A DNA stretch of 43,763 nt from contig DATNHZ010000051.1 of NCBI GenBank assembly GCA_035604655.1, forward strand, positions 1 to 43,763. The letters are read 5' to 3'. Positions 2,660 through 43,763 of this stretch are shown one piece after another. The DNA comes from Steroidobacteraceae bacterium. GTDB taxonomy: Bacteria > Pseudomonadota > Gammaproteobacteria > Steroidobacterales > Steroidobacteraceae. Each line of letters starts with the position of its first letter. The stretch's first letter is position 1. The notes beneath the pieces were generated by a model that ran no database searches, was not told the origin of the DNA, and saw nothing but the letters and a program-made list of their open reading frames with translations. The position numbers were made by a program, and so were the translations under genes.

Positions 2660-3900
2660 GGTGCGGCCTTGGTCTCAAGCTGCACGCGTTCGCCTTCGTG
2701 CAGAAACGCCCCGGCCGAGGTGACGATCCGTTCGCTGCCATCGAGGCCGCGGTCGATCACGATCCCCTGCGGCTGCGTCCCGGCGATGTGCACGGGGCGG
2801 CGCACGGCGCGCAAGTCCGGACCTACGATGTAGACGAAGTTGACCGCGCCGTCGGAGAGCACCGCGGTCTGCGGGACCACCGGGTGCAGCTCGGTCCCGA
2901 TCTTGACCTCGCCGCGCGCGAACGCGCCGGGTCTGAGGTCGGGATGGGGCGGCAGCGCCACGCGGACCTCGCCGAGGCGGGTTGCGGGATCGATCACCGC
3001 GCTGATGAGCCGTACCGTGCCCGGGAACGGCGCGGCGATGCCGGTCAGATGCACCTCGGCGGTCTGGCCAATCTTCAGTCGCGGCAAGTCCTGCTCCGCG
3101 ACCTGCGCACGCATCTCGACCTCGCCACCACGTGCGAGCCGGAACAGTGTCGCGCCGCCCGGCATTGCCGTCTGGCCGACTTCGGCAGTGCGCGTCAGCA
3201 CGATGCCGTCGGACGGCGCACGAATCTCGGTGCGACCGAGACGCGCCTCGGCCTCGGCAAGCTGCGCCTCGGCCGCCTTGACGCGGGCCGAGGACGTCGC
3301 AACCTGAGATTGCCTCCGGTCGACCTCTTCCTTCGACAGCGCGCCGACGGACTCGGAGACGGCCGCGGCACGCCGATAATCAGCGGTGGCGAGTGCTGCC
3401 TCGGCACGATACTGCTCGAGGCTCGCCCTGAGACTCGCTACCTGGGCCTCGACCACGGCCGGTTCGAGGCGCGCGAGAGCCTGGCCGCGCTTGACCCGAT
3501 CGCCGCTTTCGACCAGCACCGCCGTGACGCGGCCACCTTCGCCCTCGACGCCGATCGGCATGTCGTAGCGAGCGACGATGCCACCGGTGAAGCTCACGGT
3601 CGCTGTGATCGCCGCCTGGCCCGCCGCCTTGACGGTCACGAGCGGCGACTGTTCGTTCGGATCCAACGCCGCAGCATGGCGCGCGGCATTCATCCGAAGC
3701 GCAATGATGAGCGCGAGAACGATGAGCACGAGGGCCACGGCCCCGACGGCGATGACGTGGGCACGGCGCCACCACGGCGGCTCGAGACTGTCGGCGTCAC
3801 GGGAACTGACTGCCGGCTCGCCACGAAACACGGGCGAGTCGAACTGTGGCGCATCGTGCGATTCCGGGCGCGGCGAGGCTTCGTCGTTCACGGTGGGCAC
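2656..3900 (-). CDS. RND efflux periplasmic adaptor subunit (membrane fusion protein, HlyD/AcrA family)
   Basis: 414-aa ORF with an N-terminal TM anchor (VIAVGAVALVLIVLALIIAL), a lipoyl/coiled-coil region (EAQVASLRASLEQYRAEAA...AQLAEAEARL) and a beta-barrel region (IRAPSDGIVLTR). Placed immediately upstream of, and overlapping, the RND permease. GTG start. Confidence 0.9.
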   Translation of the reverse strand: MPTVNDEASPRPESHDAPQFDSPVFRGEPAVSSRDADSLEPPWWRRAHVIAVGAVALVLIVLALIIALRMNAARHAAALDPNEQSPLVTVKAAGQAAITATVSFTGGIVARYDMPIGVEGEGGRVTAVLVESGDRVKRGQALARLEPAVVEAQVASLRASLEQYRAEAALATADYRRAAAVSESVGALSKEEVDRRQSQVATSSARVKAAEAQLAEAEARLGRTEIRAPSDGIVLTRTAEVGQTAMPGGATLFRLARGGEVEMRAQVAEQDLPRLKIGQTAEVHLTGIAAPFPGTVRLISAVIDPATRLGEVRVALPPHPDLRPGAFARGEVKIGTELHPVVPQTAVLSDGAVNFVYIVGPDLRAVRRPVHIAGTQPQGIVIDRGLDGSERIVTSAGAFLHEGERVQLETKAAP

Positions 3901-4037
3901 TTGTCTTGGCAGGCCTGGGATGCGCGAGTTTACGCGCTCAATTGTGCTAGTCGCGGCCGCACTCGACGAGCTGGTAGTCGGATGCGATGGGCCGTTGCGT
4001 GGTCGCTACGTCGCGCGAGTTCCGGGGTGCTGCGGAC

Positions 4038-4076
4038 AAAAAAAGGCGCCGGGAGCGGGGGAAGCTCGACGGCGCC
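4038..4076 (-). terminator. Rho-independent terminator (minus strand)
   Basis: Minus-strand RNA GGCGCCG-uc-GAGC-uuccccc-GCUC-c-CGGCGCC followed by U7 (plus-strand A run 4038-4044). The stem has 11 GC-rich base pairs. It is unidirectional, since the plus-strand version has no comparable T run. Confidence 0.75.
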
Positions 4077-4113
4077 GAGAGTTTCAAGCCACAGGGGGAG
4101 TTGAGACTTGCAC
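4038..4113 (-). ncRNA. Candidate sigma-54-dependent small RNA, or terminated leader of the RND operon (~75 nt)
   Basis: Bounded by the consensus -24/-12 promoter (4124-4139) and the intrinsic terminator (4038-4076). Predicted RNA: GUGCAAGUCUCAACUCCCCCUGUGGCUUGAAACUCUC + terminator, with a C-rich CUCCCCCU stretch. No credible ORF; the only one is a 9-codon GTG ORF. The 5' end is inferred from promoter geometry. Confidence 0.4.
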
Positions 4114-4203: not shown

Positions 4204-4231
4204 GTGACGTTCGGCGTCACATTCTGACGTC
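4204..4231. promoter_or_regulatory. Candidate enhancer (bEBP) site: perfect palindrome GTGACG-N5-CGTCAC plus adjacent GACGTC
   Basis: GTGACG (4204-4209), ttcgg, CGTCAC (4215-4220), then the palindrome GACGTC (4226-4231). The centre sits about 100 bp upstream of the predicted sigma-54 start site. An AT-rich stretch with an IHF-like gATCAAcaacTTA (4151-4170, plus-strand reading) lies between the two. Confidence 0.4.
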
Positions 4232-4259
4232 TGGGCCCGGCGGGAGTGGCTCCGCCCGG

Positions 4260-5150
4260 TCAGGAGCGGGCGGGCTTCACTGGTGGGACGACCATGCACG
4301 GGTCATGAGCCGTGCCGAACGCCCGGCACAGCGCCTGGGCTGATTCCCGGCTGAAACCGCCCAGTTGCAGCCGGTACACCTGGTGGCCGTCGGCTGTCCG
4401 GGCTGCCGCAATCAGCGGATGGCGCGTGGCGAGATCCGGGTATTTGCGCACGAGGTGCTGCCACGCCGCCGTCGCTGCATGGCTGCCTCGGGCGAAGGCC
4501 CCGAGCTGCACGCGAAAACCATGCGTGGAGTCCGGACGATCCGCCGCAGTCACTGCGCCCGCCGCGCCGGCCGGCGGAGTCACGGCAGCCGGTGCAGTCG
4601 CCCGGTCGGACGCGCCGGAGGTCGCGGCTGCACCCGGGGCAGGCGATGTCGCACGCGCGATGGCGCCCTTCGCGGTGCCGGCGGCCGCAGCGGGGCCGGC
4701 AGATCCAACCGTGGGCGAGGCGCCGCCCGGCGGTGCCTGGCCCGCCGCTTCGGTCGTCGGGGTCGCGGCCAGTCTGAGGTTTGAAATTGCGGCAAGCGCA
4801 TCGTGCGCGTGCTGACCGGCCGGGTAGCCCCTGAGGTACTGCTGGTAGGCGTCCGGCGTATCGGCAGCGTGTGCCCGCTGCCATTCACGCTCCTCGAGGA
4901 GCGTTGCGAGATGCTCGCGGGCCTCGCGCGCGTGCGCGCCGTCGGGATGCAGCCGCAGGTAGTCGTCGAAGGCGACGACGGTGTTGGCGCGCTCCGCGGT
5001 CTGGTAGTCACGATCGGCGCCGCAGCCCGCCACCAGCAGCAGGACCAGGCACGCGCAACGACTGATTCCGGCGCCGCGGTGACGCCGCGCAACCGCGGCG
5101 CCGGTCGACGACGTCGATACCACGCGTGCGCCAAGGCTGAGTCGCAGCAT
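4260..5150 (-). CDS. SPOR domain-containing lipoprotein
   Basis: Internal ATG at 5150 of the 450-aa ORF gives MLRLSLGARV...CLVLLLVAGCGAD (lipobox LVAGC). There is a Pro/Ala-rich linker and a C-terminal SPOR-like GFRVQLGAFARGSHAATAAWQHL...YRLQLGGFSRESAQALC. The upstream 154 codons are Arg/Pro-rich and overlap the divergent gene region. Confidence 0.75.
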   Translation of the reverse strand: MLRLSLGARVVSTSSTGAAVARRHRGAGISRCACLVLLLVAGCGADRDYQTAERANTVVAFDDYLRLHPDGAHAREAREHLATLLEEREWQRAHAADTPDAYQQYLRGYPAGQHAHDALAAISNLRLAATPTTEAAGQAPPGGASPTVGSAGPAAAAGTAKGAIARATSPAPGAAATSGASDRATAPAAVTPPAGAAGAVTAADRPDSTHGFRVQLGAFARGSHAATAAWQHLVRKYPDLATRHPLIAAARTADGHQVYRLQLGGFSRESAQALCRAFGTAHDPCMVVPPVKPARS

Positions 5151-26087: not shown

Positions 26088-27197
26088 TTAGTAGGTGACG
26101 ACGCTGCGGATGGACTCACCCGCATGCATCAGGTCGAACGCGGTGTTGATCTCATCGAGCGGCATCACGTGCGTGATCAACGGGTCGATCGCGATCTTCT
26201 TGTCCATGTACCAGTCGACGATCCTCGGCACGTCGGTGCGACCCCGGGCGCCACCGAACGCCGTGCCCTTCCAGACCCGGCCGGTGACCAGCTGGAACGG
26301 CCGGGTCTTGATCTCCTGGCCGGCGCCGGCGACACCGATGATCACCGACACGCCCCAGCCGCGATGGCAGCACTCGAGCGCCTGACGCATCAGGTCGACG
26401 TTGCCGACGCATTCGAAGCTGTAGTCCGCCCCGCCGTCGGTGAGCGCCACGAGATGCTGCACCAGATCGCCCTCGACCTCCTTCGGGTTCACGAACTGCG
26501 TCATGCCGAACTTCTCGGCGAGCGGCCGGCGCTTTGGATTGACGTCGACGCCTATGATCCTGTTCGCACCGACCAGCCGCGCACCCTGGATCACGTTCAA
26601 CCCGATGCCGCCGAGACCGAATACGACCACATTCGCGCCCGCTTCCACCTTGGCCGTGTTGATCACGGCCCCGATGCCGGTCGTGACGCCGCAGCCGATG
26701 TAGCAGACCTTGTCGAACGGCGCGTCGTCGCGGATCTTGGCTACCGCGATCTCCGGCAGCACCGTGTAGTTGGAGAACGTCGAGCAGCCCATGTAGTGGT
26801 GCACTTTCTCGCCGCCGATCGAGAAGCGGCTGGTGCCGTCGGGCATCACGCCCTTGCCCTGGGTCGCGCGTATCGCAGTGCACAGGTTGGTCTTGCGCGA
26901 GGTGCAGCTCTTGCACTGCCGGCACTCGGGCGTATAGAGAGGGATCACGTGGTCGCCCTTTCTCACCGCTGCGACCCCCGGACCCACGTCGACGACGATC
27001 CCCGCCCCCTCGTGCCCGAAGATGACGGGGAACAGGCCCTCGGGGTCGGCGCCCGAGCGCGTGAACTCATCCGTGTGGCAGATGCCGGTGGCCTTGAGCT
27101 CCACCAGCACCTCGCCCGCCTTCGGGCCGTCGAGATCGACAGTCACGATCTCGAGCGGCTTGCCGGCGGCGTAGGCAATCGCGGCGCGGGTCTTCAT
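26088..27197 (-). CDS. adhC: S-(hydroxymethyl)glutathione dehydrogenase / class III alcohol dehydrogenase
   Basis: [46 protein letters not shown]...GHEGAGIV...VFGLGGIGL. Confidence 0.95.
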
Positions 27198-33719: not shown

Positions 33720-36700
33720 TCAGGCGGCGCGATCAACGACCGGTGCCGGTTTGCGCCACTGTGCCAGCAGTTCGGCCTCGCAGCGCCGGGCACGGTCCAG
33801 ATGTTTGAGCTTGACGTGACCGTAGCCGCGGATCTGTTCGGGAATACCGGCGAGCTCGGTGGCGAGCGCGTACCGTGACGCATCGAGCCCGGCCAGCAGT
33901 TCGTCCACCAGGGCCTCGTACTCGACAATCAGCCGGCGCTCGAGCTTGCGCTCGGCACTGCGCCCGAACGGATCGAATGGCGTGCCGCGCAGCCAGCGCA
34001 GCCGCGCCAGCCAGCGAAACGCGGTCAGCACCCACGGGCCGAACTCGCGCTTGCGCGGCACGCCGGTCACCGGGTCGCGGCGCGCGAGCAGCGGCGGGGC
34101 CAGGTTGAACCGCAACCGGTAGCCGCCGGTGAAGGTGCCGGCGACCTGGGCGCGGAACGATTCGGACGAATACAGTCGCGCGACCTCGTACTCGTCCTTG
34201 TAGGCCAGCAGCTTGAAGTAGGCGCGGGCCACGGTCTCGGCCAGACCCGAGCGCCCCGGGACACGTGCCTGCTGAGCGGCGGCGGTCCGATCGACGAGCG
34301 AGCGGTAGCGGCGTGCGTAGCTGGCGTCCTGGTAGTCGGCGAGGAAGCGTTCGCGAACCGCGACGATGTCGGCAAGCGTCGTGGCGAGCGGCGCCGGTGC
34401 GCCACCCGCGGCGCCGAGCAGGCCGGCGAACCGGGCCGGATCGTGAGCGGCGAGCCGACCGAGCGCAAGCGCCCGGCGGTTGAACGCGACCGCGACGCCG
34501 TTGAGCTCGAGCGCCCGCTCGAGCGCGCCGCGCGACACGGGCAGCAGGCCCTGCTGCAGCGCATAGCCGACCACGAACATGTTGCTGCCGACCGTGTCGC
34601 CGAGCAGCCGGAGCGCGGCGCGCGTGGCCGGCACGGCGAGCGTCGCGGCTGCGCCGGCGATCGCCTCGATCGCGGCGCGCAGGTCGTCCGGACGGAAATC
34701 GACATCCGGGTTCTGCTGGAACGCGGCGGTCGGCACGAGCTCCGTATTGAGCACGACCGTGGTCCGGCCCGGGTCCAGCGCGCGCAGCACTTCTACGGAG
34801 GCCGCCACCACGAGGTCGCAGCCGAGCACCAGGTCAGCCTCGAGCGGGCCGACGCGCGGCGCGTGGATCAGGTCCGCGCTCGCGGCGATCTTGACGTGCG
34901 ACAGCACCGCACCACCCTTCTGGGCGAGGCCGGTCATGTCGAAGACGCTGGCAGCGAGGCCGTCGAGGTGCGCGGCCGTGCCGAGCACCGCGCCGACAGT
35001 CACGACGCCGGTGCCGCCGATACCGCCGATCAGTACCGCGAACCCGGCTCCGGGCTGCGCCCGCGCGGGTTCCGGCAGCGCGGCGAGCGCTTGGGAGTCG
35101 ATTGCCGCCGGCGCCGGCTTGCTGAGCGCGCCACCATCCACCGTCACGAACGACGGACAGAAGCCGGTGGCACAGGAGTAGTCCTTGTTGCAGCTCGACT
35201 GGTCGATGCGCCGCTTGCGACCGAACTCCGTCTCTTGCGGCTCGATCGACACGCAGTTCGACTGCACCGAGCAGTCGCCGCAGCCTTCGCACACGAGCTC
35301 GTTGATCAGCATGCGCCGCTGCGGATCCGGATACGCGCCCCGCTTGCGGCGGCGGCGCTTCTCGGCCGCGCAGGTCTGGTCATAGATCAGCGCCGATACA
35401 CCGCGCACGGCGCGCAGCTCGCGCTGTAGCGCATCGAGCGCGCTGCGATCATGCACGGTCGTGCCCGGCGCGAACAGCGGGTCGCGGCCGTACTTGGCGA
35501 CATCGTCGCTGACGACGGCGATCCGCGCGACGCGCTCGGCGCGCAGCTGGTGGGTGATTTCCGCGACCGACAGCCCGCCTTCGACGGCCTGGCCGCCGGT
35601 CATCGCGACCGCATCGTTGTAGAGGATCTTGTAGGTGATGCTGGCACCGGCCGTGACAGCCGCGCGAATTGCCAGCAACCCGGAATGAAAGTAGGTGCCG
35701 TCGCCGAGATTCTGGAAGACATGCGGCAGTTCCGTGAACGGCGCGATGCCGACCCAGTTGACTCCCTCGCCACCCATGTGCGTCGGCTGCAGCGTGTTGC
35801 GGTTCATGTACAACGCCATCGTGTGGCAGCCGATGCCGGCGAGCGCGAGGCTGCCCTCGGGGACCCGCGTCGAGGAGTTGTGCGGGCAGCCGGAACAGAA
35901 GTACGGGATCCGCACGGTCAGCCCGCCCTTGCGCTCGCGTACGGCGGCGAGCCTGCGCTCGAGGAGCTCGAGCCGCAGTATCAGCGCCTGGTCCGCGAGC
36001 CCGAGTGAGGCGAGCCGCGCACCGATCAGCCGCGCGATGTCGAGCGACTCGAGCACGACTGCCTCCGGCACCAGCGGTGCGCCGGTCTCGTCACGCTTGC
36101 CGACGAGTCGCGGCCGTTCGCCGTGGGGCAGGTTGTAGAGCACGTGCGCCGCCTGCGGCTCCAGGAACGGCGCCTTCTCCTCGATCACGAAGAGTTCGCG
36201 CCGGCCGCGCGCGAATTCGATCAGGCCCGCGGGCTCGAGCGGCCAGATCATCGCCGGCTTGTAGACCGCGATGCCGACGGCCGCGGCCCGCGCACCGTCG
36301 AGGCCGAGGGCCGCGAGCGCCTGCGCGACGTCGAGCCAGGACTTGCCGGCGGCGACGATGCCGAGGCCCTGCGTCGCGCCGCCGTGCGTGATGCGGTCGA
36401 GCCGGTTGGCACGCACGAAGGCCTGCGCCGCCGGCAGTTTGAAGCGCTGCAGCCGCTGGTCGTCGCCGACCGGGTCGAACACGAAGCGCGCATGCACGCC
36501 CTCGGGCGGCATCGCCGCATCCACCGGCAGCGTGATCATGACCCGCGCCGGGTCCACCTCAGCGGTCGCGGACGTCTCGACCGTGTCGTTGACGCACTTG
36601 ATGCCGACCCACACGCCCGCGAAACGCGACAGCGCAAAGCCGTAGAGGCCCAGGTCGAGGTACTCCTGCACGGTCGCCGGGTACAGCACCGGCACGCCGT

Positions 36701-37199
36701 GCGCCACCAATGCCTGCTCGCTCTGGAATGCCACCGTCGAGCTCTTGCCGGCGTGATCGTCGCCGCAGGCCAGCAACACGCCGCCGTAGCGCGAGGTGCC
36801 CATGCGGTTGCCGTGCTTGATCGGGTCGCCCGAGCGGTCGACGCCCGGTCCTTTCCCGTACCAGATCGCGAACACGCCGTCGTACCTGGCCCCCGGCAGC
36901 AGCGGCACCTGCTGCGTGCCCCAGACCGCGGTCGCCGCCAGGTCCTCGTTGACCCCGGGCTCGAAGCGGACGTGGGCCGCGGTCAGCCGCGCCTGTTCGC
37001 GCAGCAACTGCTGGTCGTAGCCGCCGAGCGGTGAGCCGCGGTAACCGCTGATGAAGCCCGCGGTGTTGAGGCCGGCGGCGAGGTCCCGGGCCCGCTGCAT
37101 CAGCGGCAGGCGCACCAGCGCCTGCGTGGCGCTCAGGAACACGCGGCCGCTGTCACGCGTGTACTTGTCGTCGAGGGTGATCTCGGGGTTGGCGCTCAT
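33720..37199 (-). CDS. Indolepyruvate ferredoxin oxidoreductase family protein (fused IorA-IorB)
   Basis: Internal start MSANPEITLDDKYTRDSGRVFLSATQALVRLPL. TPP-binding region GDGTYFHSG, ferredoxin-like CEGCGDC...C cluster, and a length of 1159 aa typical of the fused proteobacterial form. Confidence 0.9.
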   Translation of the reverse strand: MSANPEITLDDKYTRDSGRVFLSATQALVRLPLMQRARDLAAGLNTAGFISGYRGSPLGGYDQQLLREQARLTAAHVRFEPGVNEDLAATAVWGTQQVPLLPGARYDGVFAIWYGKGPGVDRSGDPIKHGNRMGTSRYGGVLLACGDDHAGKSSTVAFQSEQALVAHGVPVLYPATVQEYLDLGLYGFALSRFAGVWVGIKCVNDTVETSATAEVDPARVMITLPVDAAMPPEGVHARFVFDPVGDDQRLQRFKLPAAQAFVRANRLDRITHGGATQGLGIVAAGKSWLDVAQALAALGLDGARAAAVGIAVYKPAMIWPLEPAGLIEFARGRRELFVIEEKAPFLEPQAAHVLYNLPHGERPRLVGKRDETGAPLVPEAVVLESLDIARLIGARLASLGLADQALILRLELLERRLAAVRERKGGLTVRIPYFCSGCPHNSSTRVPEGSLALAGIGCHTMALYMNRNTLQPTHMGGEGVNWVGIAPFTELPHVFQNLGDGTYFHSGLLAIRAAVTAGASITYKILYNDAVAMTGGQAVEGGLSVAEITHQLRAERVARIAVVSDDVAKYGRDPLFAPGTTVHDRSALDALQRELRAVRGVSALIYDQTCAAEKRRRRKRGAYPDPQRRMLINELVCEGCGDCSVQSNCVSIEPQETEFGRKRRIDQSSCNKDYSCATGFCPSFVTVDGGALSKPAPAAIDSQALAALPEPARAQPGAGFAVLIGGIGGTGVVTVGAVLGTAAHLDGLAASVFDMTGLAQKGGAVLSHVKIAASADLIHAPRVGPLEADLVLGCDLVVAASVEVLRALDPGRTTVVLNTELVPTAAFQQNPDVDFRPDDLRAAIEAIAGAAATLAVPATRAALRLLGDTVGSNMFVVGYALQQGLLPVSRGALERALELNGVAVAFNRRALALGRLAAHDPARFAGLLGAAGGAPAPLATTLADIVAVRERFLADYQDASYARRYRSLVDRTAAAQQARVPGRSGLAETVARAYFKLLAYKDEYEVARLYSSESFRAQVAGTFTGGYRLRFNLAPPLLARRDPVTGVPRKREFGPWVLTAFRWLARLRWLRGTPFDPFGRSAERKLERRLIVEYEALVDELLAGLDASRYALATELAGIPEQIRGYGHVKLKHLDRARRCEAELLAQWRKPAPVVDRAA

Positions 37200-37330
37200 G
37201 AGGGGCGAAGGGCGGGTCCTGCTGGGTTCTGCAAGCGTACCTGTTGCCGGTTTGGGCGGGTACCGCCCGCCGGCGTCCCGGCCGCGCGGCCCGTGGACGC
37301 GTCGGGCCGGAACCGGTAACGTCCCCCCCA

Positions 37331-37756
37331 ATGAGCATCTGGTTCCGCCCGGTCGTCCTCGACGAGGTCCGCCAGGTGTTTGAGACGGGCATGGCCGCCC
37401 ATCTCGACATCCGGCTCAAGGGCATCGGCGATGACTGGCTGTCCGGCACGATGCTGGTCGATCACCGTACGCAGCAGCCGATGGGGCTGCTGCACGGCGG
37501 CGCATCGGCCGCACTGGCAGAGACGCTCGGCAGCGTCGCGGCGACCCTGTGCATCGACTACCCGACCGTGCGCGCGATCGGCCAGGAGATCAACAGCAAC
37601 CACATCCGCGCCGTGTCGAGCGGGATCGTGACCGGCATTGCACGACCGATCCACATCGGCCACCGCAGCCAGGTGTGGGGGATCGAGATCCGTAATCCCG
37701 CCGACAAGCTGGTGTGCATCTCGCGGCTGACGATGGCGGTAATCTCGGCGCCCTGA
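37331..37756 (+). CDS. PaaI/YbdB family hotdog-fold thioesterase
   Basis: Internal start MSIWFRP. GLLHGGASAALAETLGS and INSNHIRAV motifs. Divergent from the ior gene. Confidence 0.85.
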   Translation: MSIWFRPVVLDEVRQVFETGMAAHLDIRLKGIGDDWLSGTMLVDHRTQQPMGLLHGGASAALAETLGSVAATLCIDYPTVRAIGQEINSNHIRAVSSGIVTGIARPIHIGHRSQVWGIEIRNPADKLVCISRLTMAVISAP

Positions 37757-38057: not shown

Positions 38058-40817
38058 ATGGCCGACGTCCCGCGCCTGTATCTGGTCGACGGCTCCTCGT
38101 ACCTGTATCGCGCGTTTCACGCGTTGCCGCCGTTCAGCAATTCCAAGGGTGAGCCGACGGGCGCGGTGTTCGGCGTACTCAACATGCTGCAGAAGTTCGT
38201 GAAGGACGAACGCCCGACGCACATCGGGATCGTGTTCGACGCGCCGGGACGCACCTTCCGGGACGACCTGTTCGAAGCCTACAAGGCGCACCGGCCGCCG
38301 ATGCCGGACGAGCTGCGCTCGCAGGTCGCGCCGCTCCTCGAGACGGTCGAGGCCCTGGGCCTGCCGCTGCTGCGTGTCCCGGGGGTCGAGGCCGACGATG
38401 TGATCGGCACGCTGGCGCGCCGCGCTGCGGCCGAAGGCATGCAGGTCGTGATCTCGACCGGCGACAAGGACATGGCGCAACTGGTCGACGGCCAGGTCAC
38501 TCTGATCAATACGATGACCGGAACGACGCTCGACCGGGCGGGCGTCAAGGCGCGGTTCGACGTCGACCCCGAGCAGATCGTCGACTACCTGGCGCTCGTC
38601 GGCGATGCCTCGGACAACATCCCGGGCGTGCCGAAGGTCGGGCCCAAGACCGCCGCCAAGTGGCTGAGCAGCTACCGCACGGTCGATGAACTCATCACCC
38701 ACTCAGCCGAGATCGAAGGCAAGGTCGGCGAGAGCCTGCGTGCGAATCTGCCGCAGCTCGAGTTGTCGCGAAAGCTCGCCACGATCCGCTGCGACCTGGC
38801 GCTGCCCGTCGAGCCGGCCGGGCTCGCACCGCGCTCGCCCGACGTCGAGCGGCTCAAGGCGCTGTACCGCAGCTTGGAGTTCAGGAAGCACCTGGAGGCG
38901 CTCGAGGCCGGCACGTCCGGCGAGCAAGCACCCGCCGCGGTGGCTGAGCCGCCGCGTGCAACCGGCGACGGGAAGCCGGACGCGATGCGCGACGCCATCG
39001 CCGCCGCTCCGCGTCACTACGACACCGTCGTCACCGAGCAGCAGCTCGGCAACTGGCTCGAGCGGCTGCGGGCCGCGGAACTGTTTGCATTCGACACCGA
39101 GACCACCGGTCTCGACTACATGACCGCCGAGATCGTCGGGCTGTCCTTCGCGACGGCGCCCGGCGAGGCCGCCTACGTGCCGCTGATGCACGATTATGCG
39201 GGCGCTCCGGAGCAGCTGCCGCGCGAGCACGTGCTGCGGGCGCTGCGGCCGCTGCTCGAGGATCCCACAAGGGCCAAGGTTGGGCATCACGCCAAGTTCG
39301 ATGCGCACATCCTCGAGAACCACGGGATCCGCCTCGCCGGCCTGCGGTTCGACTCAATGCTCGAATCCTACGTGCTCGACAGCGTCGCCACGCGCCACGA
39401 CATGGATTCGGTGGCGGAGCGCTACCTCGGCATCCGCACGATCCACTTCGAGGATGTCGCGGGCAAGGGAGCGAAGCAGCTGACCTTCAACCAGGTACCG
39501 GTCGAGACGGCCGCCGAGTACGCCGCCGAGGACGCCGATGTCACGCTGCGCCTGCACCGCGTCCTGCGCGCGCGGCTCGAACGGGAGCCGCGGCTGCTGC
39601 GGCTTTATGACGAGCTCGAGCAGCCGCTGCAACCTGTATTGCAGCGGATGGAGCGGCGCGGCGTGCTGGTCGACCGCGAGTTCCTGCGCGGGCTCAGCCG
39701 CGAGTTCGCGCAGCGTCTCGGCGAGCTCGAGAAGGCCGCCCACGACGCAGCCGGCGGGCCTTTCAATCTCGAATCCCCGCGGCAGCTGCAGCAGATCCTG
39801 TTCGAGCGGCTGAACATTCCGGTGGTTCGGCGCACGCCGACCGGGCAACCGTCGACCGCCGAGGACGTGCTCGAGGAGCTGGCCGGGAGCCATGCGCTGC
39901 CGAAGCTGATACTCGACTACCGGGTGCTGGCGAAGCTGAAGAGCACCTACACCGACACGTTGCCCGAACAGGTGAGCCCGCGCACCGGCCGCATTCACAC
40001 CTCCTACCATCAGGCTGTCGCCGCGACCGGGCGGCTGTCGTCATCGGATCCGAACCTGCAGAACATTCCGATTCGCACGCAGGAAGGCCGTCGCATCCGT
40101 CAGGCATTCATCGCCCCGCCCGGCCGCGTGCTGCTCGCCGCCGATTACTCGCAGATCGAGCTGCGGATCATGGCGCACCTGTCGGGGGACCCCGGACTGC
40201 TGCGCGCCTTCGCCGAACGGCGCGACGTGCACGAGGCGACGGCGGCCGAGATGTTTGGTCTCGAACCGTCGGCGGTGACGGTCGATCAGCGCCGCGCAGC
40301 GAAGGCGATCAACTTCGGCCTGATGTACGGCATGTCGGCGTTCGGACTCGCCGCGCGGCTCGACATCGACCGCGGCTCCGCGCAGCAGTACATCGAGCGC
40401 TACTTCGAGCGCTATCCGGGCGTGCGTCGCTACATGGATGACACCCGCAGGCTCGCGCGCGAGCAGGGCTATGTCGAGACCGTGGACGGTCGGCGCCTGT
40501 ACCTGCCGGAGATCCGCTCCCGCAACAAGCAGCAGCAGCAGTATGCGGAGCGGGCCGCGATCAATGCTCCGATGCAGGGCACGGCGGCCGACATCATCAA
40601 GCGCGCGATGCTCGCAGTGGATTCCTGGATCGAGAGCGAGCGTGCACCGGCGACACTCGTGATGCAGGTGCACGATGAGCTGGTGCTCGAGGTCGGGGCG
40701 GACGCCGTCGAGGCGGTGCGCCCGCGCATCGTCTCGCTGATGTGTGCCGCGGCGACGCTGCAGGTGCCGCTCGAGGTCGGGGTCGGGGTCGGGGCCAACT
40801 GGGACGAGGCGCACTGA
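38058..40817 (+). CDS. polA: DNA polymerase I
   Basis: 919 aa. 5'-nuclease N-terminus (LYLVDGSSYLYRAFHA), 3'-5' exonuclease (FAFDTETTGLD), polymerase motifs (DYSQIELRI, RRAAKAINFGLMYG, QVHDEL). Confidence 0.98.
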   Translation: MADVPRLYLVDGSSYLYRAFHALPPFSNSKGEPTGAVFGVLNMLQKFVKDERPTHIGIVFDAPGRTFRDDLFEAYKAHRPPMPDELRSQVAPLLETVEALGLPLLRVPGVEADDVIGTLARRAAAEGMQVVISTGDKDMAQLVDGQVTLINTMTGTTLDRAGVKARFDVDPEQIVDYLALVGDASDNIPGVPKVGPKTAAKWLSSYRTVDELITHSAEIEGKVGESLRANLPQLELSRKLATIRCDLALPVEPAGLAPRSPDVERLKALYRSLEFRKHLEALEAGTSGEQAPAAVAEPPRATGDGKPDAMRDAIAAAPRHYDTVVTEQQLGNWLERLRAAELFAFDTETTGLDYMTAEIVGLSFATAPGEAAYVPLMHDYAGAPEQLPREHVLRALRPLLEDPTRAKVGHHAKFDAHILENHGIRLAGLRFDSMLESYVLDSVATRHDMDSVAERYLGIRTIHFEDVAGKGAKQLTFNQVPVETAAEYAAEDADVTLRLHRVLRARLEREPRLLRLYDELEQPLQPVLQRMERRGVLVDREFLRGLSREFAQRLGELEKAAHDAAGGPFNLESPRQLQQILFERLNIPVVRRTPTGQPSTAEDVLEELAGSHALPKLILDYRVLAKLKSTYTDTLPEQVSPRTGRIHTSYHQAVAATGRLSSSDPNLQNIPIRTQEGRRIRQAFIAPPGRVLLAADYSQIELRIMAHLSGDPGLLRAFAERRDVHEATAAEMFGLEPSAVTVDQRRAAKAINFGLMYGMSAFGLAARLDIDRGSAQQYIERYFERYPGVRRYMDDTRRLAREQGYVETVDGRRLYLPEIRSRNKQQQQYAERAAINAPMQGTAADIIKRAMLAVDSWIESERAPATLVMQVHDELVLEVGADAVEAVRPRIVSLMCAAATLQVPLEVGVGVGANWDEAH

Positions 40818-40890
40818 GTTTCGACTGGCCGAGCCGGGGCGCTGCGGCGCTGTCCTCGGTGGACCTTTGACGTTTCTTGACCGGCGCCCC

Positions 40891-40918
40891 GGAACTTTCG
40901 ATCCCGGCCCGGATCCAA
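40891..40918 (+). promoter_or_regulatory. Sigma-E/AlgU-type (ECF) promoter GGAACTT-N16-TCCAA
   Basis: GGAACTT (40891-40897), a 16-nt spacer, then TCCAA (40914-40918). This is close to the RpoE consensus GGAACTT-N16-TCAAA. It lies 74 bp after the polA stop. Confidence 0.45.
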
Positions 40919-40924
40919 TTTGGC

Positions 40925-41036
40925 GAACGTTCCCGGACGTTCCCCGCTGCCCTCCCTGAGCGGGCCCATCACCCGGTTTATCCCCATGCCGGGTTAGTCT
41001 GGCCCGGCGGCACTCAGTGCCGCCGGGCCTTTTTTA
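40925..41036 (+). ncRNA. Candidate ~110-nt small RNA downstream of polA
   Basis: 5' tandem ACGTTCCC x2 (40927-40934, 40937-40944). Hairpin 1: CCCGCT (40943-48) / AGCGGG (40959-64) with loop GCCCUCCCUG. Hairpin 2: ACCCGG (40971-76) / CCGGGT (40989-94) with loop UUUAUCCCCAUG. A perfect 13-bp terminator follows. The only overlapping ORF (40877..41347) has no coding character. The 5' end is inferred. Confidence 0.4.
41001..41035 (+). terminator. Rho-independent terminator
   Basis: GGCCCGGCGGCAC (41001-41013), tca loop, GTGCCGCCGGGCC (41017-41029), then TTTTTTATTTT. Perfect 13-bp stem. Confidence 0.9.
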
Positions 41037-41656
41037 TTTTGCTGTTCAATTGCTTACGCGACGGCGTCTGTCGGCGGGCCGGCAGGCACAACGAAAGCCC
41101 AATGCGGCGTCCGCGACGCCATGAAACGCTCAAGTACCGCGGACTCGGCAATCACGCCGCTTCGCTTCGGAACTTAAGCGTTCGCCGCCTGCACGGCGTC
41201 GGCCCGGCTCGAATGTCGCTCTGCAGGGCCGGCGACGGGCGGCGCGTCGCCCGCGGTCCACGCGAGCCGGCGCATCTCCAGCGTACGTCTGTGCCGGATC
41301 AGTTCAGTGCCGAGTCATCACCACACGCAAGCCAGCGCCGCGAGTAATCACTACGGATGGGCCGCGCGCCCGCCGCGGCATCGTGGAAAACCACTGTTGC
41401 CGATGCCAGGCAGCAGCGCCTCGCACGCCATCGGCTGATCTGCGCACGCTGCTGATCTCGGCCATGCGCGAGGTCCACGCCGGTTCTGCGCATAAGCGAA
41501 TATGCATTGCGAAAATGCGTAGCCCGTGACGCGCGGCGTGATTTCGGGGGCTGCGGTGGGCGCGTATAAAGTTCGAGCGATCAAAGGTTACAGGGCTTGA
41601 TGCGTTGCGGCCTGGCGAGGCCGGCGCGGCGTCTCGACGCAGAATGGGGAATTACA

Positions 41657-43763
<2,107 letters not shown>

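Follow-up and report, generated by a model that had tools for sequence, protein, structure and literature searches.

An anti-hemB-family small-RNA gene downstream of polA in a Steroidobacteraceae genome, with a predicted RpoE/AlgU-type promoter

Does the DNA that follows polA in a Steroidobacteraceae bacterium (contig DATNHZ010000051.1 of assembly GCA_035604655.1) hold a small-RNA gene of its own, and if so, to which family does the RNA belong and which sigma factor would transcribe it? We addressed this question for the whole 43,763-nucleotide (nt) stretch, hereafter the window. An earlier annotation made from the letters alone, the sequence-only reading, had proposed that the polA stop codon is followed by a sigma-E-type promoter and a small RNA (sRNA) with three hairpins, C-rich loops and a terminator. 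Reading the window sequence directly, we found the features named there at the positions given for them, and the analyses described below suggest that positions 40891-41040 are an independent sRNA gene, the local representative of anti-hemB (ncS04), with an RpoE/AlgU-type promoter. We assign this reading a probability of about 0.72. The features on which it depends are as follows.

38058 to 40817, + strand: polA, the anchor on the upstream side, a 919-amino-acid (aa) open reading frame (ORF) assigned to DNA polymerase I with Pfam
40891 to 40897, + strand: putative -35 element GGAACTT of the sigma-E/AlgU type (extracytoplasmic function, ECF, group ECF02), from the sequence and its conservation in homologs
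40914 to 40918, + strand: putative -10 element TCCAA, 16 nt after the -35 element, from the sequence and its conservation in homologs
40924 to 41037, + strand: predicted sRNA of ~114 nt, scoring 102.2 bits with our covariance model R1 (described below), with Rfam matches to anti-hemB (40941-41037) and sX13 (40926-41034)
40925 to 40942, + strand: hairpin H1, 7 bp by folding, GAACGUU (40925-40931), loop CCCG, GACGUUC (40936-40942)
40943 to 40964, + strand: hairpin H2 by folding, stem 40943-40948 with 40959-40964, loop GCCCUCCCUG
40971 to 40994, + strand: hairpin H3 by folding, stem 40971-40977 with 40988-40994, loop UUAUCCCCAU
41001 to 41040, + strand: terminator hairpin H4, from sequence and fold, 13 bp with the 3-nt loop UCA, stem 41001-41029, U-run T6-A-T4

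The polA product carries the DNA_pol_A domain (8.9e-159), 5'-3' and 3'-5' exonuclease domains and a SAM fold by Pfam, and the distance from its stop codon to the sRNA start is 107 nt on the same strand. Transcription would start at about 40924-40926, 6-8 nt past the -10 element. When the 118-nt RNA was folded, the energy was -61.3 kcal/mol (z = -6.0), which none of 200 shuffled sequences equalled. Two copies of ACGTTCCC lie 10 nt apart at 40927-40934 and 40937-40944. This segment had been described as a tandem of two ACGUUCCC units, and although the repeated letters are there, it is better described as the 5' hairpin H1; since the repeat folds in this way, the RNA has four hairpins (H1-H4) rather than the three counted earlier. 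The perfect 13-bp terminator of the sequence-only reading was recovered at 41001-41029, and its C-rich, anti-Shine-Dalgarno-like loops could be read in the window in both H2 and H3.

The family to which the RNA belongs was indicated by a scan of the whole window against Rfam, in which anti-hemB (RF02837, "Burkholderia RNA 7"; ncS04) was the sole gathering-level match, at 40941-41037 on the + strand with 49.7 bits and E = 9.2e-9. The hairpin with the conserved CCUCCCUG loop, the second hairpin and the U-run terminator of anti-hemB are all present here, as judged from the model alignment, the fold and covariation, and three related loci (L002, L005 and L008) reach 51-55 bits with the same model. 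At relaxed thresholds the sX13 model (RF02232) matched over its full length at 40926-41034 with 34.0 bits (E = 1.7e-4), below its gathering cut-off of 50. The Pseudomon-1/ErsA model (RF01719) gave no match at E <= 10 in 40700-41700, and Spot 42 (RF00021) gave none in the gathering-level or relaxed Rfam scans, so that no sequence homology to it was detectable. Its family is one that Rfam already contains, and a pipeline based on Rfam would label the RNA anti-hemB.

To collect homologs, we searched PolA-matched loci with the intergenic region by nhmmer and blastn. The best matches to the C-terminal half of PolA, at 70-72% identity, were in Steroidobacteraceae and Woeseiaceae metagenome-assembled genomes (MAGs), and in many of the PolA-matched loci the element was found 3' of polA on the same strand. 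The four-hairpin covariance model R1 was built on an alignment of 15 polA-linked copies (A1). It scored 102.2 bits in the window, 42 bits in Rhodanobacter and 35-36 bits (E ~1e-6) on true Stenotrophomonas sX13, and it also found polA-downstream copies in Woeseiaceae, Wenzhouxiangella and Rhodanobacter. Seven Pseudomonas loci gave weak matches of 15-26 bits at the position of ErsA, and a search of Spot 42 loci gave nothing at E <= 1. We further scanned GTDB genomes with the exact H2-core pattern CCGCT-N3/4-CTCCCTGAGCGG, which returned at least 120 loci, among the matches listed mostly Betaproteobacteria, plus Steroidobacteraceae, Salinisphaera, Immundisolibacter, Contendobacter and Rudaea. Nearly all of the 100 H2-core loci searched, among the matches listed, contained a full-length R1 match. 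Together the R1 homologs number more than 100 and come from Gamma- and Betaproteobacteria; homolog counts here and below are samples among the matches listed, not all GTDB genomes. A candidate second copy within the window, at 26195-26315, scored 16 bits with R1 (E = 0.15); since long ORFs enclose it and both a terminator and C-rich loops are missing, we set it aside as noise.

Fitting 102 homologs to the R1 model gave an alignment (A3) in which 92.4% of the pair cells held standard pairs and all 29 base pairs showed double changes. The covariation score was 0.505, compared with at most 0.113 when the pairing partners were slid by 1-3 columns, and the observed value was reached by none of 500 shuffles. 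In a structure-blind MAFFT alignment H1, H2 and H4 held, with 81.7% of cells paired and 18 of the 29 pairs doubly changed; this alignment misplaced H3 (54% of cells paired), a fault mended by the model-based alignment and by separate folding, in which the H3 segment between H2 and H4, folded alone, formed a hairpin in 102/102 homologs. Over the 102 homologs, compensatory changes were seen in 6/6 pairs of H1 (for example GAGUGC/GCACUC and GAGCGU/ACGCUC) and in 9/9 main pairs of H4, and 98.3% of cells were paired in H2 and likewise in H4. The core of the H2 loop, CUCCCU, is essentially invariant, and the loop GCCCUCCCUG may thus serve as a family-wide anti-Shine-Dalgarno-like seed. The H3 loop varies by lineage: it is of the CCCC type in 27/102 homologs, the window among them, and GAGACC in 9/102. 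The terminator loop contains CCCC in 50/102; that of the window is UCA. Conserved structure downstream of polA in relatives, which the sequence-only reading had put forward as a check on its candidate, was therefore borne out, by more than 100 homologs found with the covariance model and compensatory changes at 29/29 pairs. By this comparison of sequences, the predicted RNA is confirmed as conserved, structured and terminator-ended.

We note that nine Steroidobacteraceae MAGs have a (U/C)GAGACC loop in H3 in place of CCCC, and that in this subgroup the gap between polA and the sRNA is 430-1490 nt.

We next considered how the RNA would be transcribed. The pattern GGAACTT-N16-TCNAA, with at most one mismatch, occurs once on the two strands of the 43.7-kb window, where 0.05 sites are expected by chance, and a scan of the region for sigma-70 promoters found nothing. 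For comparison among homologs we took the 55 nt upstream of each R1 match. GAAC-N18/19-TC was present in 64/100 of these upstream regions versus 4/95 control regions 300 nt further upstream and ~2.2 in shuffles, and in 51 of the 64 motif-bearing homologs GAAC lay 32-34 nt before the model start. Broken down by linkage, the sigma-E-like motif was found in 31/35 polA-linked homologs, 5/6 linked to engB only, 22/32 linked to both hemB and engB, and 3/20 linked to hemB only (Comamonadaceae), with sigma-70-like promoters in 0/35, 0/6, 1/32 and 14/20 (TTGAAA-N17-TAAATT), respectively. Positions outside the search pattern were kept as well, namely G before GAAC (32/43), T after it (36/43) and the A of TCnnA (38/43). 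The 16-nt spacer is unconserved (~0.04-0.6 bit per position, mostly <=0.3), as are the flanks. The resulting homolog consensus is gGAACTt-N16-TCtnA, which we take to be the RpoE/AlgU consensus. A motif of the same class, GAACT-N16/17-TCAGA, precedes ErsA in 7/7 Pseudomonas loci, and ErsA is described as "strictly dependent" on sigma-22 (PMC7565897, PMC8395346). The near-consensus RpoE/AlgU-type motif claimed at 40891-40918 thus held up as present, unique in the window and conserved in homologs. The promoter reading is well supported by comparison, and from the motif we infer that transcription of the sRNA depends on sigma-E.

In many homologs (for example L002, L008, L027, L149, L166, L170 and L147) an A/T-rich tract resembling AAAATTTTTT lies 5-20 nt 5' of GGAAC; in the window only a weak, T-rich version is seen, CTTTGACGTTTCTTGA at 40866-40880. 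Either an UP element or no more than the U-run of a terminator further upstream could account for this tract.

These elements suggest the following mechanism. An RpoE/AlgU-type ECF sigma factor would recognize GGAACTT-N16-TCCAA and start transcription near 40924-40926, and the resulting ~114-nt RNA would fold into its four hairpins, a structure supported by covariation, and end at the intrinsic terminator. The loops of H2 (CCCUCCCU) and H3 (AUCCCCAU) could then base-pair with G-rich sequences of Shine-Dalgarno type close to start codons, blocking translation. We propose repression by loop pairing because it has been demonstrated for the C-rich loops of sX13, which needs those loops to repress mRNAs that have G-rich motifs close to their start codons (PMC3771888). 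Under envelope stress, the RNA would reduce the output of a group of proteins, plausibly ones that belong to the envelope or are exported, by analogy with ErsA, MicA and RybB; outer-membrane protein targets are likewise suggested by analogy. The ribosome-binding site (RBS) of the gene downstream, which encodes an MtrC-like outer-membrane cytochrome, reads AUGGGGA and could form 7 bp with the H3 loop.

Several observations weigh against the combined reading of an anti-hemB-type RNA under envelope-stress control. The anti-hemB score lies just 0.2 bit above the cut-off of 49.5, which is marginal. Predicted pairing with the RBS of the MtrC-like gene (-13.5 kcal/mol for H3 and -17.1 kcal/mol for H2) fell at about the 24th percentile of the window background for both loops, no better than that background and ordinary for such GC-rich DNA, and so speaks neither for nor against this gene as a target. 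In Comamonadaceae (Variovorax, Caenimonas, Ramlibacter and relatives) a near-consensus sigma-70 promoter, TTGAAA-N17-TAAATT, replaces the sigma-E motif; this is a clean promoter replacement at a conserved sRNA gene, and the linkage to engB and cyc4 (cytochrome c4) is lost there too. The sequence found with the copies of Burkholderia and Paraburkholderia, GGAAACTTTTCGAGACAATGGTATATCATA, is ambiguous and might be read as an extended -10 element (TGgTATATC). Two Stenotrophomonas sX13 loci have a conserved TATA(A/G)C box in common, and neither a clean GAACTT at the right distance nor GGAACTT-N16-TCnnA was present upstream of them. Since the promoter motif is replaced in some relatives, regulation of the gene is evolutionarily labile. 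Many ECF groups, moreover, share -35 boxes of the AAC type. The stretch from the polA stop to the sRNA has no terminator, and read-through or processing of the polA 3' untranslated region (UTR) could contribute. Finally, ncS04 of Burkholderia cenocepacia did not respond to the stresses tested, including sodium dodecyl sulfate (SDS) and NaCl (PMC5688073).

Most of these points bear on the strongest alternative, in which the RNA is real but is made under another ECF sigma factor, or by polA read-through and 3'-UTR processing, rather than under an envelope-stress sigma factor. The use of sigma-70-type promoters for the same RNA in other lineages and the unchanged behaviour of ncS04 under the stresses tested are as this alternative would have them. 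However, what is conserved over large distances is the full bipartite motif, with a TCnnA -10 element at a fixed 16-nt spacing, which is the RpoE/AlgU (ECF02) signature and not an AAC-type -35 box by itself. In the Beta lineages the RNA is divergent from hemB and hence requires a promoter of its own. ErsA, which shares both the motif and the chromosomal slot, is sigma-22 dependent by experiment (PMC7565897). We therefore consider this alternative unlikely and retain the RpoE/AlgU-type promoter as the preferred reading.

The setting of the gene was compared by running Pfam on flanking ORFs and tblastn with PolA, EngB, HemB and cytochrome c4. In Gammaproteobacteria the arrangement polA> sRNA> <engB cyc4> was found at 37 loci, all Pseudomonas loci among them, and in Betaproteobacteria <hemB sRNA> <engB cyc4> at 34 loci. 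Partial arrangements were also seen, with only hemB in Comamonadaceae and only polA in the window, Stenotrophomonas, Rhodanobacter and one Wenzhouxiangella locus. Neither hemB nor engB had a tblastn match in the window, where the sRNA is flanked by polA upstream and the MtrC-like gene downstream; the closest relatives retain engB and cyc4 downstream.

Tandem copies of the sRNA occur between polA and engB in Salinisphaera shabanensis (locus L027, at 3772-3889, 3996-4107 and 4211-4321), and sibling copies also stand in tandem at L166 (three), L147 (two) and L170 (two). Each tandem copy has its own GGAAC-N16/17-TCTGA promoter and terminator, which suggests dosage or target diversification.

The synteny bears on a second alternative, that the element regulates a gene next to it, in cis or by antisense pairing, either as a hemB antisense RNA or, read on the reverse strand, as a 'hemB motif' in the role of a 5' UTR element. 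Weinberg et al., who predicted anti-hemB in 2007, left the strand undecided (PMC1950547), and a 2026 preprint reads anti-hemB as a regulator of hemB (10.64898/2026.09.01.748597). Yet hemB is not near the element in the window or in the 37 Gamma loci, and at most Beta loci the RNA does not overlap hemB but is divergent from it, typically 90-360 nt apart. Frequent U·G pairs place the sRNA on the + strand: pair 54-65 is U·G in 86/102 sequences, which the opposite strand would turn into a C·A mismatch, and the orientations of the U-run terminator and the promoter agree. The Salinisphaera sibling copies fit a trans-acting RNA. Regulation of a neighbour in cis is thus very improbable. The last alternative, that nothing is present here except the polA terminator with chance GC-rich hairpins, or a small protein, draws on the hairpins and long spurious ORFs common in a GC-rich genome (for example 40877-41347 on the + strand and 40469-40987 on the - strand), but it is effectively refuted by the z-score of -6 against shuffles, the Rfam match and the compensatory changes in the homologs, by conservation that tracks stems and loops rather than codons and, for the protein-coding version, by an overlapping ORF (40877-41347) that has no Pfam match.

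We also asked which Rfam families occupy the same slot in other lineages. At gathering level, the assignments were as follows.

Photorhabdus, Klebsiella, Enterobacter, Lonsdalea, Vibrio and Shewanella: Spot_42
Pseudomonas and Stutzerimonas: Pseudomon-1/ErsA
Stenotrophomonas: sX13
Steroidobacteraceae: anti-hemB

Relaxed scans added sub-cut-off matches at the slot, namely anti-hemB at many loci, sX13 in Rhodanobacter (42 bits) and at L043, Pseudomon-1/ErsA at L016 (34 bits versus a cut-off of 50) and αr14 in Wenzhouxiangella. The αr14 model matched the Wenzhouxiangella loci at L017 3795-3900 and L018 3797-3906 with 38.8 bits versus a cut-off of 58.8. In alphaproteobacteria, according to the sX13 paper, polA is likewise the site of αr7 sRNAs, whose loops are C-rich (PMC3771888). 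In Vibrio (L037 464-529 and L060 354-420), RyhB was seen ~2 kb upstream of the C-terminal polA segment that had been matched, and CsrC ~1 kb downstream of Spot 42 in Klebsiella (L028); in enterics and vibrios, sRNA genes are numerous around polA. The analogy of position that the sequence-only reading drew with Spot 42 is real, and it extends beyond the slot itself to the engB synteny.

One slot, after polA or hemB and convergent with engB, therefore hosts Spot 42, ErsA, sX13 and anti-hemB, and its commonest promoter state across Beta- and Gammaproteobacteria is of the sigma-E type. At the least, anti-hemB and sX13 are connected by intermediate forms. For ErsA, the same position, the same promoter class and the weak model matches are suggestive of homology, and Spot 42 shares position only. 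We tentatively raise the possibility, to which we would give somewhat less than even odds, that anti-hemB, sX13, ErsA and possibly Spot 42 are diverged orthologs of one ancestral sRNA gene that stood beside engB and cytochrome c4 before the Beta/Gamma split. The families may then divide the descendants among them, with anti-hemB in Betaproteobacteria and basal Gammaproteobacteria, sX13 in Xanthomonadaceae, ErsA in Pseudomonas and Spot 42 in enterics and vibrios. If so, the ancestral gene would have been under an envelope-stress sigma factor and its promoter rewired several times later, to CRP and sigma-70 in enterics, to sigma-70 in Comamonadaceae and Burkholderia and in some other way in Xanthomonadaceae. 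The seed loops would have changed too, the window RNA would be an intermediate form linking the families, and the interpretation of anti-hemB as an antisense regulator of hemB would be wrong.

In this genome we can annotate with confidence an anti-hemB/sX13-type sRNA gene, for which an envelope-stress promoter is predicted; the lineage, Steroidobacteraceae-like by polA similarity, has been little studied. The biology is foreshadowed by sX13 and ErsA. We found no publication linking sX13 with ErsA and no mention of sigma-E in the anti-hemB publications consulted, and both the conservation of a sigma-E-type promoter across the anti-hemB family and the engB-anchored slot common to anti-hemB, sX13, ErsA and Spot 42 look unreported in the searchable literature. 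These two features conflict with the hemB-antisense reading of the recent preprint (10.64898/2026.09.01.748597). Were our interpretation true, it would offer a testable evolutionary account in which the position of a conserved sRNA gene persists through the rewiring of its regulation and seed, and it would argue that anti-hemB acts in trans under stress control rather than as a hemB antisense RNA.

Two neighbouring genes provide context and are not part of the sRNA element.

41654 to 43762, + strand, running off the window: MtrC/OmcA-like outer-membrane multihaem cytochrome (PF22113, 7e-36; PF22112)
33720 to 37331, - strand: 1203-aa ORF that precedes polA and is oppositely oriented; its domains are POR and DUF6537, and the product is a fusion protein resembling indolepyruvate/2-oxoacid:ferredoxin oxidoreductase

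The cytochrome is of the decahaem type, with several CXXCH domains, and the two Pfam matches agree with the earlier statement that the next gene downstream encodes an outer-membrane cytochrome. Its presence implies a capacity for extracellular electron transfer in this Steroidobacteraceae-like gammaproteobacterium.

How, then, does the predicted RNA compare with known systems? It is closest to anti-hemB, represented in B. cenocepacia J2315 by ncS04, which is 105 nt long, starts at a site of its own, is detected on Northern blots and binds Hfq (PMC5688073). The two share the H2 hairpin with its CCUCCCUG loop, the middle hairpin and the terminator, at a gathering-level model score; their lengths are similar (105 nt versus ~114 nt here), and the closest relatives of the window share the engB/cytochrome c4 synteny. 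They differ in that the window gene follows polA rather than hemB and has no engB downstream, in that the H3 loop here is of the CCCC type as in sX13 while the Rfam model has no H1, and in that the Burkholderia copies appear to have an extended -10, sigma-70-type promoter instead of a clean sigma-E motif.

The sX13 RNA of Xanthomonas campestris pv. vesicatoria, a transcript detected by experiment, is 115 nt long, "always located downstream of polA", and has three stems with apical C-rich loops (PMC3771888). Like the window RNA, it lies directly 3' of polA on the same strand, is ~115 nt long and has hairpins with apical C-rich loops (loop 2 of the UCCCCA type), and the covariance-model matches are reciprocal, both sub-threshold. 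In the window, by contrast, the terminator loop is UCA and not C-rich, with H2 (CCCUCCC) and H3 (CCCC) providing the C-rich loops, and sX13 is Hfq-independent (PMC3771888), whereas the ncS04 of anti-hemB binds Hfq.

ErsA of Pseudomonas aeruginosa (RF01719) shares the polA> sRNA> <engB cyc4> slot, the window being polA-linked with engB adjacent only in its relatives, and its GAACT-N16/17-TCAGA promoter is of the same motif class. Its own terminator loop is C-rich. ErsA differs in having no significant sequence match to the window, the Pseudomonas loci scoring only 15-26 bits with R1, and its seeds are U-rich and single-stranded, with a requirement for Hfq. Spot 42 (spf; Enterobacterales, Vibrionales and Shewanella) likewise lies 3' of polA on the same strand, and in E. 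coli engB (yihA) follows it in convergent orientation; there is no detectable similarity in sequence or structure, and Spot 42 has a CRP-repressed sigma-70 promoter and targets in carbon metabolism. The E. coli sigma-E sRNAs MicA, RybB and MicL are unrelated in sequence, locus and seed type. Their seeds are single-stranded, lie at the 5' end and depend on Hfq; the putative seeds here are C-rich hairpin loops. What they would have in common with the window RNA is the promoter class and the expected role, less synthesis of envelope proteins under stress.

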